From: a virus
Strand: one strand, 5' to 3'
UHGV virus genome: UHGV-0127505
DNA: 40,301 nt
The notes beneath the pieces were generated by a model. It had not been told where the DNA came from. It saw nothing but the letters and a program-made list of their open reading frames with translations, and made no database searches. Below are positions 10,536-19,204 of this stretch, piece after piece. The first letter of the stretch is position 1. Each line of letters opens with the position of its first letter. The position numbers were made by a program, and so were the translations under genes.

Positions 10536-10766
10536 ATGAACCCAGCAATCAAAACAGCGATCAATATCGTTGGTTCACAAAAGAAACTGGGCGATGCCTG
10601 CGAAGTTTCACAGCAGGCCGTCTATAAGTGGCTTCACAACAAAGCAAAGGTATCCCCTGAACATGTCGGCAGCATTGTTACGGCTACTGGTGGAGTTGTG
10701 AAGGCATACCAGATTCGCCCGGACCTTCCGAAGTTGTTTCCACACACCGAAAAGAACGCAGCTTAA
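10536..10766 (+). CDS. cro: Cro-like HTH repressor
   Basis: 76 aa with HTH (LGDACEVSQQAVYKW); divergent from cI. Confidence 0.8.
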   Translation: MNPAIKTAINIVGSQKKLGDACEVSQQAVYKWLHNKAKVSPEHVGSIVTATGGVVKAYQIRPDLPKLFPHTEKNAA

Positions 10767-10847: not shown

Positions 10848-11387
10848 ATGCAACCAATTACATACCAACAGACTAGCGGATTTAGCCCGACTGCGGTGAT
10901 AAATCGTTCTCAAACAAAACAGGCGCCAGGCCACGAAAAAATCCGTGATGCCGTTCGCGCCTGGTCGGCTGCAGATAATCAGGATGTTGTTGCCGCACTC
11001 ATTGTGAATGAGTATCGGGAGCAGGGCGGCGGCACCATCGATTTCCCTGATGATGTCAGCCGTGCACGCCAGAAGCTGTTCCGCTTCCTCGATAACAAAT
11101 TCGATTCTGAAAAATACCGAAATAACGTGCGTGAACTGACCCCGGCAATTCTGGCGGTACTACCGCTGGAATATCGCGGCCACCTGGTTGAGCAGGATAG
11201 CTTCATGGCTCGGCTGGCTGAAATGGAAAAGGAACTCAGTGAGGCAAAACAGGCTGTCATTCTCAACGCACCACGCCACCAGAAACTGAAGGAAATTAGT
11301 GAAGGTATTGTGTCGATGTTTCGTGTGGACCCAGATCTGGCTGGTCCATTGATGGCGATGGTTACTACCATGCTGGGGGCGATATGA
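10848..11387 (+). CDS. Regulatory protein in the cII position (YdaT-like family, tentative)
   Basis: 179 aa, AAAGGA ribosome-binding site; position between cro and O; family assignment from recall only. Confidence 0.45.
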   Translation: MQPITYQQTSGFSPTAVINRSQTKQAPGHEKIRDAVRAWSAADNQDVVAALIVNEYREQGGGTIDFPDDVSRARQKLFRFLDNKFDSEKYRNNVRELTPAILAVLPLEYRGHLVEQDSFMARLAEMEKELSEAKQAVILNAPRHQKLKEISEGIVSMFRVDPDLAGPLMAMVTTMLGAI

Positions 11388-14308: not shown

Positions 14309-14713
14309 ATGACAACGAAAATAAGCAAAGATGATAAACATCTGCTTGATCCTTATTTAAAATGGCTTGCAAACAAGAAGCTAATGGTTGCCTTCTGGTT
14401 GGTGCTAATGATATGTGGTTGCATATATGCATATATAGAAAATGATTGGTCACTTCTTCCCCGATTCGGATGTTTAGGCATAATGATTGGCACATTGCTT
14501 ACTCTTTCTCCGCTTTTTGCAGAAGGTATCTACCTATCAAGGCGAGAAGCATTTAGTTTTGGTTCGGTACAACAAGATGGGAGCGTCACCTCAACCTCTG
14601 AAAAAGGTCGTGCAGTATCAAGGAATATTCTATGGGGTGTTATCATTATAATCATATCATCGATAATAAATGCATTTGGTGACTTAATAATGGTCACGAT
14701 TATGAATGGTTAA
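14309..14713 (+). CDS. Small integral membrane protein (about 3 predicted TM helices), AT-rich moron
   Basis: Hydrophobic segments (LMVAFWLVLMICGCIYAYI, LGIMIGTLLTLSPLF, ILWGVIIIIISSIINAF); AGAGG ribosome-binding site before ATG 14309; ORF-track start 14291. Confidence 0.55.
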   Translation: MTTKISKDDKHLLDPYLKWLANKKLMVAFWLVLMICGCIYAYIENDWSLLPRFGCLGIMIGTLLTLSPLFAEGIYLSRREAFSFGSVQQDGSVTSTSEKGRAVSRNILWGVIIIIISSIINAFGDLIMVTIMNG

Positions 14714-14792
14714 AATAATTAACATTTATGATATTAGTATTATATAACTTAGTATGCTGTTTAATTAAGTCACCGCAGACTTGACACTTGGC

Positions 14793-14891
14793 GGTAACTT
14801 CTGCGCTAAACGGTGACGTTTATACGCACATACAATCTAAATCCTCTTCTCCCTCCACAGATGCAGAAATATACCTGCGATTTTTTGCATT
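14793..14891 (+). repeat. Copy A of a roughly 100-bp direct repeat / candidate structured RNA element
   Basis: Shares GGT(A/G)ACTTCTGCGCT and CACAGATGCAGAAAT..ACCTGCGAT..TTGCAT(T/C)C with 17203-17303; adjacent hairpins differ in sequence but both pair. Confidence 0.6.
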
Positions 14892-15308
14892 CGGTGTTTT
14901 TGGCAGCCAAGAACAGGGAGTCTCTGTTTGTCTGGCGGCTAAAGGTGATATGGAAATCGTGATGTCTTGGCCTAAAGTAGTTGCAACAGTTGGAGCGATT
15001 ATGGTGGTAGTAGTGATCATCGCACCACCCATTTGCAAGGGTTGACGACATTATTTATCCGGCGCTATATTCTGTGCGTTGCCGCAAAATCGGCACACGG
15101 GATTGGCGTCCCGGAATACTACTCAACGCATACCGCGTTAAGCGGTTTTTTTATGCGCTAAGCACGGCTACGCCCAAATTATGGTGGGCTGTGTGAGGGC
15201 TTCTTCGGGAGCGCCGGGTTTGAGTAGCCGGTTACGCCAACCTTGCACAGTTCACCACCAGTCGATTGGCGTCGTTGGTGGTGATGGTTAACCTGATGAG
15301 GTGATACT

Positions 15309-15917
15309 ATGACTACTCAATTAGCATTCCACAAAACGACGTTTACCCCAATTTGCCACAATAACAGAATTTGGCTTACTGCCACTGAAGTTGGTTTAGC
15401 TCTGGAATATGCGGACGATAAAGCAGTTCAGCGCATTTACTCTCGTCACTCAGATGAATTTACAGATATGATGACAAGGGTGGTCAAAGTGACCACCCCT
15501 CGTGGAATGCAGGAGTCTCGAGTATTTAGCCTTCGCGGAGCCCATTTGATCGCCATGTTTGCACGAACTCCTGTAGCCAAAGAGTTCCGCCGCTGGGTTC
15601 TGGATATTCTCGATCGAGAAGTTCAACAATCCCCGATCACAAAACAATTCACTGATAACGAACTTTGCACACTCGCCTGGTTATGGCGAGCAAGTGATAC
15701 GATGTTAATCGCCTGCCAGAACGTTACTCCACTTCTTCAGGTTGCGGAGCACCGCGAAGCCGGTCGCTTTACTTCTATCAGTCAGGAATATCCCCTGATA
15801 CTCAGCAAGGCGCGAGCAATCCTTGCCAGAGAAACGGCGCATGTAAAATTCCAACCGTGGCAGGATGATAAGTGGAGCAGGGTATTGCCACATTTGCGTC
15901 AGGCTAGATTGCAATAG
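15309..15917 (+). CDS. Bro-N domain protein (phage antirepressor-like)
   Basis: 202 aa; N-terminus (ICHNNRIWLTATEVGLALEYADDKAVQRIYSRHSDEF) typical of Bro-N / antirepressor proteins. Confidence 0.65.
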   Translation: MTTQLAFHKTTFTPICHNNRIWLTATEVGLALEYADDKAVQRIYSRHSDEFTDMMTRVVKVTTPRGMQESRVFSLRGAHLIAMFARTPVAKEFRRWVLDILDREVQQSPITKQFTDNELCTLAWLWRASDTMLIACQNVTPLLQVAEHREAGRFTSISQEYPLILSKARAILARETAHVKFQPWQDDKWSRVLPHLRQARLQ

Positions 15918-16079
15918 TTTTACATATTAGGCGCTGAATGGATGCAAGCAGGTAGCGCACTGGGCGGCAATGATTAAGGCTTCAGATAAGCCAAGTAAGC
16001 ACTGAAGAAGTTCAATGTAATCAAATTCTCTTTATGGTATTTTCGTTAGACCCCTCATGCACTTAGATGGAAATTTGAA

Positions 16080-16280
16080 ATGATGTATTCAGTGACTTTC
16101 GATGATACTGGACGAGTAGAAGATATTGAACTAGATCGTGAGGTTAGAGCCGGAGATAGACTCTCGCTTAATATTGATGGTCTTGATGGTATTTATATAG
16201 TCATGACTGTTAGCGGCCCTATCTATGAAAATGTTTGTATGCCAATGAATATCCGGGTTCAAAAGTATTGGAAGCAATGA
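16080..16280 (+). CDS. Hypothetical protein (66 aa)
   Basis: ORF only; AT-rich. Confidence 0.35.
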   Translation: MMYSVTFDDTGRVEDIELDREVRAGDRLSLNIDGLDGIYIVMTVSGPIYENVCMPMNIRVQKYWKQ

Positions 16281-16296
16281 TGTATAATCCCCTCAG

Positions 16297-16542
16297 ATGC
16301 TCGAGGGGATTTTTATGTCAGACTGGAACATTGCAGCAAAACCGCAAAAGGAACGTGACAAGGTAAGCGTTGGCCTTGCGCTTTCAGGTGTAGCGTATAA
16401 AGAACGCCCGAACATGCCGGTTATAGCTAAACAGGTAGCTAGAGAACAACTTGGGCATCTCCGCGAGTACTTAATGGATCGCGTCCGTTATTACCGTAAG
16501 CAGAGCATCACCTTCCAAAAGCATCCGAACCACGCTACATAG
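16297..16542 (+). CDS. Hypothetical protein (81 aa; start possibly ATG at 16315)
   Basis: ORF only. Confidence 0.4.
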   Translation: MLEGIFMSDWNIAAKPQKERDKVSVGLALSGVAYKERPNMPVIAKQVAREQLGHLREYLMDRVRYYRKQSITFQKHPNHAT

Positions 16543-16557
16543 AAATGGCAGACTTAA

Positions 16558-17145
16558 ATGCAAGAAAATGAAAAGCAAGAGCAGCATGAAACTGAACCTC
16601 AGGATTTAGATTTTCCAGCAGAATTTGACTCTCTGATTAATGCAAATGGAAAGATAACACCTGCATTGCTAACGGTAGTTAACCGGTATTTTTTATATTT
16701 TTCATTCTTTGAATCACTTCTTTTGGGGTGTTCTGGAAGTCAGGGGAAGAGTTCGAAATACGCAGCGAAATTGTTGGAATTCAAATTAGTTGATCTTGAC
16801 GTTCTTAAGCGAACATACTTCTTTTTTGCAGACCGTTATCTGGCAGATGTAGTGAAGTTTGAAAACCTATGTGGTGATTTAGAGCATACATCGCAGAAGG
16901 CTAGGGATGAAAAAATTAAGGCCATGCAATTAAAGACAAACGACCCTGAAATTCAGTTAGGTGTTTGTATTTTTGTTTGTTTCAGGTTGCGAAACAACCT
17001 TTTTCATGGACCAAAATGGCGTTATTTGCTTGATGGGCAAGAGGATTTGCTCTTAATTGCCGGAAATTTTATACATTCTATTCTATTACAGGTGCCTAGT
17101 AGAGATGGCTGGGAATTCAAGAATATTTTAACTTCTACTGATTAG
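16558..17145 (+). CDS. Hypothetical protein with an Rx4HG (HEPN-like) motif; candidate abortive-infection RNase (tentative)
   Basis: 195 aa; AT-rich; motif RLRNNLFHG near the C-terminus matches the HEPN R-x4-6-H signature. Confidence 0.5.
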   Translation: MQENEKQEQHETEPQDLDFPAEFDSLINANGKITPALLTVVNRYFLYFSFFESLLLGCSGSQGKSSKYAAKLLEFKLVDLDVLKRTYFFFADRYLADVVKFENLCGDLEHTSQKARDEKIKAMQLKTNDPEIQLGVCIFVCFRLRNNLFHGPKWRYLLDGQEDLLLIAGNFIHSILLQVPSRDGWEFKNILTSTD

Positions 17146-17202
17146 CTTTGATTTTCCATAATCAACCCGCCATAATCATGTCATCGGAGCCTGAACAACT
17201 CC

Positions 17203-17303
17203 GGTGACTTCTGCGCTTTGAGGGGACTCAAAGTGCAAACGACAATCAGAACACCTTTCAACCAGTCACAGATGCAGAAATGCACCTGCGATATCTTGCA
17301 TCC
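17203..17303 (+). repeat. Copy B of the roughly 100-bp direct repeat / candidate structured RNA element
   Basis: See copy A; hairpins CGGAG-cctgaacaa-CTCCG and TTGAG-ggga-CTCAA occupy the same positions as ACCGC...GCGGT and AAACG-gtga-CGTTT in copy A. Confidence 0.6.
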
Positions 17304-17330
17304 AACGTTTGACCTCTGCGGAGGTGAAGC

Positions 17331-17786
17331 GTGAACCTCCCACAAGATGGCATCAAATTACATCGCGGTAACTTCACCGCTATCGGTCGGCAGATCCAGC
17401 CTTATCTGGAGGAGGGCAAATGCTTTCGCATGGTGCTTAAACCGTGGCGTGAGAAACGCAGTCTTTCCCAGAATGCACTCAGCCACATGTGGTACAGCGA
17501 AATCAGTGAATACCTCATCAGCAGGGGTAAAACGTTCGCTACTCCAGCTTGGGTAAAAGATGCTCTCAAACACACATATCTCGGTTATGAAACCAAAGAC
17601 CTGGTTGATGTCGTAACCGGTGATATCACCACTATCCAGTCGTTACGCCATACCTCCGATCTTGATACCGGAGAGATGTATGTCTTCCTGTGTAAGGTTG
17701 AAGCCTGGGCGGTGAATATTGGCTGCCACCTGACTATTCCGCAGAGCTGCGAGTTCCAGCTGCTCCGCGACAAGCAGGAGGCGTAA
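17331..17786 (+). CDS. ybcN: NinB/Orf-family recombination mediator (DLP12 YbcN-like)
   Basis: 151 aa; GTG start with GGAGGTG ribosome-binding site; recognised as the DLP12 YbcN type. Confidence 0.7.
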
Positions 17787-17956
17787 TGGCTACACCGCTT
17801 ATTCGTGTCATGAACGGACACATCTACAGAGTACCAGATCGTCGTAAGCGTAAACCGGAGCTGAAGCCTTCCGAAATACCAACACTGCTCGGATATACCG
17901 CCAGCCTGGTTGATAAAAAATGGTTGCGACTGGCAGCAAGGAGGAATCATGGCTGA
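17786..17956 (+). CDS. ninE: NinE-family protein (56 aa)
   Basis: Hand-translated [56 protein letters not shown]; start overlaps the ybcN stop (TAATG). Confidence 0.55.
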   Translation: MATPLIRVMNGHIYRVPDRRKRKPELKPSEIPTLLGYTASLVDKKWLRLAARRNHG

Positions 17957-18239
17957 TTTGAGAAAAGCAGCGCGTAGTCGGGAATGCCAGGTAAGAATCC
18001 CTGGCGTATGTAATGGCAACCCTGAAACGTCTGTACTGGCACATATCCGGCTGACTGGATTGTGCGGCACCGGTACCAAACCGCCAGACCTGATTGCCAC
18101 CATTGCATGTTCTGCCTGCCACGACGAAATCGACCGCCGCACACATTTTGTCGATGCTGCATATGCAAAAGAATGCGCGCTGGAAGGTATGGCGAGAACA
18201 CAGGTTATCTGGCTGAAAGAGGGGGTTATTAAGGCGTGA
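17949..18239 (+). CDS. ybcO: YbcO-like protein (DUF1364, putative nuclease; Cys-rich)
   Basis: 96 aa from [37 protein letters not shown]...; nin-region position. Confidence 0.75.
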
Positions 18240-18598
18240 ATACCTACAGCATCACATTACCCTGGCCTCCGAGCAATAATCGCTATTACCGCCATAATCG
18301 CGGGCGCACGCACGTCAGCGCAGAGGGGCAGGCATACCGCGATAACGTCGCCCGAATCATTAAAAACGCAATGCTGGATATCGGCCTGGCTATGCCTGTG
18401 AAAATCCGCATTGAGTGCCACATGCCGGATCGCCGTCGCCGTGACCTGGATAATCTGCAAAAAGCCGCTTTTGACGCACTCACTAAAGCAGGTTTCTGGC
18501 TGGATGATGCTCAGGTCGTTGATTACCGCGTTGTGAAGATGCCTGTTACCAAAGGTGGGAGGCTGGAACTGACCATCACCGAAATGGGGAATGAATGA
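18236..18598 (+). CDS. rusA: RusA Holliday-junction resolvase
   Basis: 120 aa [37 protein letters not shown]... reads as RusA. Confidence 0.9.
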
Positions 18599-18738
18599 TG
18601 TTTGAGTTTAATATGGCAGAACTTCTTCGCCACCGCTGGGGGCGTCTGCGCTTATATCGTTTCCCCGGTTCTGTTTTGACCGATTACCGAATACTGAAGA
18701 ATTACGCCAAAACCCTGACAGGAGCAGGAGTATGAAGT
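18598..18738 (+). CDS. ylcG: YlcG-like small protein (46 aa)
   Basis: [45 protein letters not shown]; start overlaps the rusA stop. Confidence 0.6.
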
Positions 18739-18820
18739 CAGAGATAACAATCAACTAATACTGTTTTATTGATTTTTGCTTGTAATTGGCGTTCTGGTCT
18801 GATTTTTGTGGAGTAAGTTG

Positions 18821-19204
18821 ATGCGTGATATTCAGATGGTTCTTGAGCGTTGGGGAGCGTGGGCGGCTAATAATCATGAAGATGTGACCTGGTCGTCCAT
18901 TGCCGCCGGTTTTAAGGGATTAATTACTTCAAAAGTAAAATCTCGCCCGCAATGTTGTGACGATGACGCGATGATCATTTGCGGGTGCATGGCCCGTCTG
19001 AAAAAGAACAACAGCGATTTGCACGATTTATTAGTAGATTATTATGTAGTCGGTATGACATTCATGTCACTGGCAGGTAAGCATTGCTGCTCTGATGGTT
19101 ATATCGGGAAAAGGTTACAGAAGGCTGAGGGCATAATTGAAGGGATGTTAATGGCATTAGATATCCGGTTAGAGATGGATATCGTTGTTAATAACTCTAA
19201 TTAA
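18821..19204 (+). CDS. Q: Late-gene antiterminator Q (DLP12 QuuD / phage 21-82 type)
   Basis: 127 aa from [22 protein letters not shown]...; Cys-rich zinc-binding region; last nin-region gene before the lysis cassette. Confidence 0.8.

Follow-up and report, generated by a model that had tools for sequence, protein, structure and literature searches.

What is the same sequence doing twice in one lambdoid phage genome, on either side of a cassette of accessory genes and with its second copy just ahead of the ninB-type gene? The question is raised by a stretch of 40,301 nucleotides of the virus genome UHGV-0127505 (the window; positions are numbered in it, and features lie on the plus, rightward, strand unless stated otherwise). 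An earlier note on this DNA had described two direct repeats of roughly 100 bp, at 14793-14891 (copy A here) and 17203-17303 (copy B), each with hairpins that covary between the copies. We propose, with moderate confidence, that each copy heads its own transcription unit as a cis-acting leader, which attenuates, and translationally gates, the nin region (NinB to Q) of lambdoid phages.

Two copies of one element

Both repeats are present where they had been reported, and their similarity is far beyond chance. The shared blocks, one of 16 nt with 94% identity (block 1; 14792-14807 and 17202-17217) and one of 44 nt with 82% identity (block 2; 14856-14899 and 17267-17310), are equally spaced, at 2410 and 2411 nt. 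R1, a three-hairpin covariance model built solely from other phage contigs, matched both copies over its full length, copy B (17178-17296) with 102 bits (E 6e-20) and copy A (14767-14885) with 48 bits (E 1e-8); with filters off, it gave no third match in the rest of the 40-kb window. RNA folding and a covariance search, the checks which the earlier note had suggested, thus found a shared structure beyond chance, and Rfam 15 matched neither copy, either over the whole window at gathering thresholds or over 14500-17600 at E values up to 10.

The repeat itself stands, but its size does not: the true element is about 190 nt long, covering 14760-14962 in copy A and 17148-17334 in copy B. Block 1 corresponds to the 3′ arm of a first hairpin (HP1), a linker and the 5′ arm of a second (HP2), while block 2 is a third hairpin (HP3) that lies inside a short leader open reading frame (ORF).

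Selection on the RNA structure

Relatives of the element were gathered by scanning IMG/VR, and a single genome for each species, for sequence patterns, which gave 133 distinct elements of an E. coli type, in Escherichia, Enterobacter, Citrobacter, Lelliottia, Trabulsiella and Huaxiibacter, together with 11 diverged versions, of the same overall plan, in Klebsiella phages. A gapped genome-wide pattern search also produced chance matches in unrelated taxa, about three quarters of its total, which were removed; similarly, a 14-base Klebsiella pattern returned mostly noise, from which the 11 true matches were retained. A covariance model detects, besides the two copies, about 100 distinct relatives in phages of Escherichia, Enterobacter, Citrobacter and Klebsiella. 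Of 5426 complete E. coli genomes, 2974 contain a match to copy B; the element is found in phages of differing immunity types (phage 82, phi80 and HK639).

Across 93 distinct homologues, 97.3% of the cells in paired columns were indeed paired, against 84.7% after column shuffling (0 of 500 shuffles reached the observed value) and 26-36% in controls in which the pairing partner was slid along. Changes on both sides of a pair were seen at 8 of the 10 pairs of HP1 and at all 10 of HP2, in which 99.7% of cells were paired. RNAalifold recovered HP1 and HP2 from the model-guided alignment, an alignment that was fitted to the model and hence favours the structure; plain MAFFT followed by RNAalifold missed both hairpins through register shifts, so that model-guided realignment was required. 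However, the raw lists of stem variants, which need no alignment, show the same compensation. The hairpins that had been reported as covarying between the two copies are therefore real and covary across the family.

HP3 was near-invariant in the first set, partly because the search pattern had fixed it. In the Klebsiella type it reads UGGC-GAAR-GCCA, flanked by CCG/YGG, in place of UGCA-GAAA-UGCA with CAG/CUG; three pairs are thus changed on both sides, with the A.C mismatches and the GNRA loop retained, although these three double changes come from a single lineage split and count as one or a few events.

The paired columns contain 195 G.U cells and 26 A.C cells; these are cell counts rather than independent events, but such an excess of G.U over A.C indicates that it is the plus-strand RNA that folds, and not DNA palindromes or a minus-strand RNA. 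The covariation and the G.U excess together bear out the earlier suggestion of a conserved RNA structure, read rightward, rather than a chance similarity.

Anatomy of copy B and its relatives

Copy B appears to be headed by a sigma-70-type promoter, which a promoter scan placed at 17148-17176 (-35 TTGATT at 17148-17153, a 17-nt spacer and -10 CATAAT at 17171-17176). Both hexamers match at 4 or more of 6 positions in 122 of the 133 E. coli-type elements, amid varying flanking sequence, with TTGATT itself in 106, the 17-nt spacer in 125 and CATAAT in 98; the Klebsiella-type equivalent is TTGC(A/T)T-N17-GATAAT. Directly upstream of the element a canonical intrinsic terminator is found in 14 of the 133. 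The -35 hexamer also forms part of one half of a dyad, TTGAT-N8-ATCAA (17148-17165), and Klebsiella-type promoters have a dyad of their own, TATCCCC-N5-GGGCGATA (contigs L226 to L228, at about 1395-1420). In both types the dyad is conserved more than a -35 requires, and it may be a candidate binding site for some regulator. We considered a cI/cro operator and rejected it, as the dyad is not present at the immunity region.

HP1 (17180-17208; GUCAUCGGAG / CUCCGGUGAC) follows, with a 10-bp stem and a conserved 9-nt loop, CCUGAACAA, which contains a YUNR motif. Among the relatives HP1 begins 3-6 nt past the -10, overlapping the predicted transcription start, and its stem of 8-11 bp exists in many compensatory versions; the loop is kept while the stem takes many distinct sequences, its consensus being YCUGAACAN, with CUGGACA or CCUGAGCAA in the Klebsiella type. 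A linker, of 3 nt in the E. coli type, leads to HP2 (17212-17237; UGCGCUUUGAG-GGGA-CUCAAAGUGCA), where the Shine-Dalgarno (SD) sequence GGGGA lies in and beside the tetraloop and the leader start codon, GUG at 17233-17235, lies in the 3′ arm. The earlier note had recognised this second hairpin as a 5-bp stem, which is only its top; the true stem is of 10-11 bp, running from TGCGC to the start codon plus GC. Among the 132 distinct elements the stem is likewise of 10-11 bp, 130 have a GGGA loop, all 132 pair the start codon within the 3′ arm, and the predicted free energy of HP2 ranges from -10.9 to -17.4 kcal/mol (median -13.3).

HP2 and HP3 are separated by an unstructured spacer that is rich in C and A and poor in G (17238-17264 in copy B; about 27 nt, with 39% C, 35% A, 18% U and 8% G over 44 distinct spacers). 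HP3 itself (17265-17292; GUC-A-CAG-A-UGCA-GAAA-UGCA-C-CUG-C-GAU) is capped by a GNRA loop, contains two conserved A.C mismatches and is predicted in every sequence class. In the E. coli type AUGCAGAA, within its 5′ arm, is also fully complementary to UUCUGCAU just 3′ of it (17270-17302); an alternative hairpin, in which block 1 or the UUCUGCA after HP3 pairs with the HP3 5′ arm, is even the minimum free energy (MFE) structure of that type, at -13.4 kcal/mol. We did not adopt it because it is absent from the Klebsiella-type elements.

A fourth hairpin, HP4 (17306-17331; CGUUUGACCUC-UGCG-GAGGUGAAGCG), comes from the MFE fold of copy B. Its 5′ arm lies within the leader ORF and it buries the SD of ninB (GGAGG); an equivalent SD-burying hairpin, of different sequence, is found in all 3′-end classes, at -13 to -21 kcal/mol. 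The leader ORF of copy B (17233-17334; 33 codons) is a homologue of orf33 of phage 82 and of ylcH of E. coli K-12, and its stop codon, TGA at 17332-17334, overlaps the GTG start of ninB (17331-17333). In the relatives, too, the TGA overlaps the start (ATG or GTG) of whichever gene comes next; in many contigs this is NinB, in others a different one. In the window the ninB/ybcN-type gene (17331-17786) heads a chain of overlapping ORFs, ninE (17786-17956), a ybcO-like gene (to 18239), rusA (18236-18598) and ylcG (18595-18735). The overlaps that begin with the leader and ninB run on to about 70 nt before Q (18806-19204).

Function of the element

This fold is interlaced with a promoter, an SD, a start codon, an ORF that is always open and the start of the next gene, which argues that the element is an mRNA leader. 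A structured non-coding RNA, which the earlier note had put forward, is unlikely if a free-standing molecule is meant.

We suggest that the default state of such a leader would be locked. HP1 may be a weak terminator, or a hairpin that forms or trims 3′ ends, for rightward transcripts, and as even its outermost pairs covary, the full hairpin probably matters in RNAs that start upstream of the local promoter. HP2 would block initiation on the leader ORF and so keep leader translation low. The first nin gene would be translated only by coupling, when a ribosome on the leader ORF melts HP4; since ninB translation would then need coupling to a locked leader, the first nin gene would stay off, and the overlapping gene chain downstream of it may be dampened too. 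Expression would depend on opening or bypassing HP1 and HP2, by antiterminated transcription from pR or by some other factor or condition.

Data from E. coli K-12 bear on the homologous locus in the DLP12 prophage, rather than on the window itself. Curated Term-seq 3′ ends lie at 572349 and 572350 (plus strand), 19 nt upstream of ylcH, in the sheets for LB at an optical density of 2.0 and, by sheet order, for M63 medium (Adams et al. 2021, PMC7815308). These ends map 5-6 nt past the last base pair of HP1. They lend some weight to the suggestion of a processing or termination element, as an RNA 3′ end does form there, although the U-tract of a terminator is absent. In addition, rusA, downstream of ybcN in DLP12, is described by Curtis et al. 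2014 (PMC4118853), in a passage that cites Mahdi et al. 1996, as having needed promoter-supplying insertions for adequate expression, which suggests that the operon behind an intact element is effectively off.

Several points weigh against the leader proposed here. The K-12 3′ end has low read counts and could arise by processing. Near the K-12 locus, the supplements of the Cappable-seq and SMRT-Cappable-seq studies have no transcription-start entry, so that the promoter is a predicted one. Despite its GC-rich stem of 10 bp, HP1 has no canonical U-tract (its tail is UUCUGCGC) and was not called by the terminator scan, which within the element flagged only the inner HP3 stem with AUUUUUUG, and that in copy A alone; copy B has no canonical terminator. 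Nor does the anatomy support Rho-dependent polarity, as a spacer of about 27 nt is short for a Rho loading site, and we gave little weight to Rho loading on this C-rich stretch; no Rho region is listed near the K-12 locus (PMC7815308). Furthermore, an HP2 of -13 kcal/mol may just set a low constitutive level of translation rather than act as a switch, and the model gives HP3 and the conserved HP1 loop no function.

These conserved parts would find a role in a bolder version of the idea, which we think rather unlikely: that the three conserved hairpins are more than a passive low-expression leader and make up a phage riboregulator of a new class, set where the nin-Q region is entered. This version appeals to the loops (YUNR in HP1, GGGA in HP2 and GAAR, with the two fixed A.C mismatches, in HP3), and the switch would either sense a signal from host or phage or work on RNA polymerase or the ribosome, so deciding whether transcription and translation get as far as Q. 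If true, N-less phages such as HK639 might reach Q mainly by this route, and a checkpoint of lytic development that has not been described before would be present in over half of the complete E. coli genomes.

Alternative explanations

The alternative that survives best, though we judge it unlikely, is a trans-acting RNA, short, stable and structured, consisting of HP1 alone (about 31-36 nt, to the mapped 3′ end) or of HP1 to HP3. Its surface for interaction would be either the C/A-rich spacer or the conserved YUNR loop of HP1, and the mRNA features downstream would be secondary. The K-12 3′ end right past HP1 in two growth conditions fits this, as do the silence of the DLP12 operon behind a good-looking promoter and the conservation of the HP1 loop on a variable stem. 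The YUNR motif that this loop contains is typical of fast RNA-RNA kissing. However, there is no Hfq-type terminator with a U-tail; after HP3 there is only a weak U-rich stretch, and the E. coli-type HP3 competes with another fold. The window holds no conserved complementary target, and beyond the element itself the HP1 loop has a perfect complement at a single site, 39046, without supporting context. Such an RNA would also leave unexplained the placement of the SD, start codon, open frame, HP4 and stop/start overlap, which a leader explains. Among known small RNAs, the one Hfq-bound peak of enterohaemorrhagic E. coli that was checked, EcOnc11, gave no match and was rejected as this element because it sits after the Rz gene; prophage anti-small RNAs of the AgvB/AsxR type were rejected because they lie downstream of pR′.

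It is very unlikely, in our estimation, that the element is instead a promoter-proximal RNA of the put kind, which would bind RNA polymerase and make it resistant to terminators, so that nin-Q could be transcribed without N, for example in HK639. The likeness is one of position: stem-loops follow directly on a phage promoter, as in putL of HK022, and N-less HK639, which carries the element, has a putL-like RNA annotated in its left operon and none in its right, where a terminator lies upstream of the element and Q downstream. In contrast to the bulges and non-canonical pairs described for put, the helices here are regular and near-perfect, and HP2 and HP4 are built around translation signals; R1, with filters off, misses the HK639 putL-like RNA, the one put RNA compared, and no similarity between the two was seen. 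The spread of the element over several immunity types (phage 82, phi80 and HK639) and the silence of the DLP12 operon speak against put-like action as well. A lambda-type nut site was rejected by eye, as there is no boxA (CGCUCUUA) 5′ of a boxB hairpin with a GNRA-like pentaloop. The sole boxA-like string (UGCGCUUU) lies 3′ of HP1, is paired in HP2 and is absent from the Klebsiella type, and the element also occurs in HK639, which lacks N.

Conservation at the DNA level, either as boundary homology for module exchange or as protein-bound operators or palindromes, with the hairpins incidental, we regard as quite improbable. Segments of the element (HP1 type, HP2 type, the 3′ end of the ORF and the downstream gene) have been reassorted among contigs, and in at least five contigs cassettes lie between two copies; HP1 was annotated as a ‘possible regulator-binding site’ by Mahdi et al., and the dyad overlaps the -35. 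However, DNA palindromes would not be expected to show 195 G.U against 26 A.C cells; the stems change completely with pairing kept, and it is the loops that are conserved; and recombination accounts for the spread of the element but not for its compensatory changes.

Finally, block 2 might be explained by a functional orf33/YlcH peptide, with the upstream blocks as promoter and ribosome-binding site. Annotations of the ORF exist for both K-12 and phage 82; it has 31-33 codons and is open and in frame in at least six sequence classes, and one of its Leu codons varies mostly synonymously. Elsewhere in the ORF, outside the hairpins, non-synonymous variants are at least as numerous as synonymous ones, which is not the pattern of purifying selection on amino acids; the N- and C-terminal thirds of the peptide differ wholly between classes; and Pfam, PHROG and NCBIfam contain no family that matches it. 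Within HP3, the Klebsiella type has changed QMQKCTC to PMAKATG (4 of 7 residues) by exactly those substitutions that preserve the hairpin. As the pairing of HP3 is kept while the peptide changes, the RNA structure is what is conserved, and a peptide function is hardly credible as the explanation; to judge from these sequences, it is the act of translating the ORF and its inner RNA fold that appear to matter, not the product.

Relation to known systems and earlier annotation

The cis-acting leader that we favour lies at a locus which was annotated decades ago. Copy B is the stretch immediately 5′ of ninB in many lambdoid phages, and it aligns to positions 62-241 of the phage 82 record X92588 (Mahdi et al. 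1996), which marks a putative -35 and -10, an inverted repeat as a ‘possible regulator-binding site’, a ribosome-binding site and the 33-codon orf33 overlapping orf151 (ninB). That inverted repeat is HP1; the inverted repeat IR4 of phi80 is HP2, and in the DLP12 prophage of K-12 the same sequence precedes ylcH (33 amino acids) and ybcN. These annotations are of putative DNA features and a hypothetical ORF, and include no multi-hairpin RNA, covariation, sequestration, HP3, HP4 or coupling. Likewise, in the literature on ylcH, ybcN, orf33, the nin region and tR2 we found no description of an RNA element; the four-hairpin architecture, its covariation and the lock-and-coupling logic thus have no earlier description that we could find in Rfam or the searchable literature.

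The components of the proposed mechanism have parallels. Starts that are gated by structure and coupled are found in the RNA phage MS2, and translation of lambda cIII is controlled by alternative structures. The element resembles these in its hairpin-sequestered SD and start codon, its buried downstream SD and its stop/start overlap; it differs in adding a promoter-proximal hairpin with a conserved loop and a conserved GNRA hairpin inside the ORF, and any regulator or switch between folds would be hypothetical here. In lambda, tR2 is the terminator between ren and ninB. The element has the same map position, just upstream of ninB, and HP1 is a GC-rich hairpin with an in vivo 3′ end shortly downstream of it; unlike tR2, with which it was compared by map position, HP1 has no U-tract and abuts a promoter, and some relatives have a separate terminator upstream.

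Copy A and the cassette between the copies

Copy B is the intact element ahead of ninB, with the TTGATT-N17-CATAAT promoter, a GGGA loop and, in the 3′ arm of HP2, a start codon. In copy A none of these three is preserved: there is no TTGATT -35, only a -10-like TTTAAT (14760-14765); the loop of HP2 (14802-14828; UGCGCUAAACG-GUGA-CGUUUAUACGCA) is GUGA; and ATA (14822-14824) stands in place of ATG. HP1 (14769-14798; GUCACCGC / GCGGUAAC) is weakened, with an altered loop of 14 nt, and in HP3 (14854-14881) the inner stem (UGCA / UAUA) is weakened as well. Copy A folds with a z-score of -1.7, compared with -6.9 in copy B. A remnant of the leader ORF (14813-14962) has a different 3′ end (...DFLHSVFLAAKNRESLFVWRLKVIWKS), and ends in a stop codon that overlaps the start (ATG, 14961) of a small hydrophobic ORF at 14961-15045. 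In contig L114 a leader of the copy A type has both promoter and ATG intact. From its sequence, we take copy A to be a decayed paralogue of the leader, standing ahead of an isrK/C4-antirepressor cassette; it may formerly have driven the small hydrophobic ORF. This ORF (MSWPKVVATVGAIMVVVVIIAPPICKG) is also conserved in L114 and could be a membrane peptide.

At the core of the cassette is a promoter (15042-15071, from the promoter scan), followed by Rfam matches to c4-a1b1 (15065-15117; below the gathering score), isrK (15080-15152) and C4 antisense RNA (15177-15262), and by an antirepressor with Bro-N and P22_AR_C domains (15309-15917; Pfam and PHROGs). This part (15042-15917) is like the immI region of P1 (c4-icd-ant) and the isrK-orf45-anrP module of Gifsy-1, with isrK, c4-a1b1 and C4 followed by an Ant-type antirepressor; the likeness concerns the cargo between the repeats and not the repeats themselves, which have no Rfam match. 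Further on lie an ORF of phrog_38858 and then a terminator (16080-16280; PHROGs and the terminator scan), a homologue of DNA polymerase III theta found by domain searches (16297-16542), and an ORF of 195 amino acids without an assigned family (16558-17145). The theta homologue is one of what had been described as two small ORFs, and the last ORF, which had been called a HEPN-like protein, has no match to HEPN or to anything else in Pfam, NCBIfam or PADLOC. A theta homologue just upstream of the leader is also found in HK639 and in a Klebsiella phage (L229, 11768-12010; L228, 1072-1368).

Do the repeats then mark the junctions of an inserted cassette, as had been suggested? Indirectly they may, in so far as they offer homology for exchange, but each copy heads its own set of genes. 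A leader of the copy A type, a c4/isrK-Ant module and a second leader recur together in contigs L114, L099 and L029, with different distal cargo; and in L088 two leaders bracket an unrelated cassette, with a truncated ninB after the first copy. This two-copy layout in other contigs argues that the bracketing reflects duplicated operon heads and recombination rather than scars of an insertion site. On this evidence we take the repeats to be duplicated operon heads, which also provide homology for module exchange, and not target-site duplications.

Some of these contigs merit description in their own right. Between the leaders of L099 (1721-2517) are ORFs of 138 and 133 amino acids, the first with an N-terminus that looks HEPN-like by eye; this may be a toxin-antitoxin or defence pair in the same slot. 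In L088 (6848-11069) the leaders flank a 4.1-kb cassette with ORFs of 380 and 620 amino acids, and of the ninB-like gene behind the first copy only the N-terminal part is there; this suggests insertion of the cassette by recombination within the leader/ninB 5′ region. No empty-site allele of the window's cassette was found: the left flank is present in only three genomes of E. coli, a single one of which differs, by a deletion associated with IS3. In a related E. coli prophage, L352 (NZ_AP027877.1, 1426-2573), everything from the membrane-protein gene through the 195-amino-acid ORF has given way to an element of the IS3 family; copy A and the antirepressor cassette are gone, and copy B and ybcN remain.

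Elsewhere in the window, a 644-amino-acid SIR2-domain protein (7642-9576, minus strand) adjoins cI, where lambda has rexAB; it matches Argonaute-associated SIR2-type models of PADLOC (1e-67) and Pfam SIR2_2, and is likely to be a prophage-borne defence gene. A protein with a YdaT_toxin domain (10848-11387) lies right after cro (10536-10766), where lambda has cII.

Implications for lambdoid phages

The way to Q, which activates the late (lysis and virion) genes, runs through the nin region, and control at the entrance to that region would therefore bear on the timing of lysis and on the silence of prophage genes in lambdoid phages. The element offers an explanation for the silent rusA and ybcN of DLP12, and ylcH is a clear example of an annotated small protein gene for which RNA structure accounts better than the encoded peptide does. 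If the cis-acting leader that we propose is correct, the element would be a compact, natural module of translation lock and coupling. Considered as a shared block of homology, it also helps to explain how accessory cassettes, antirepressor modules as well as other cargo, may be swapped in ahead of ninB.

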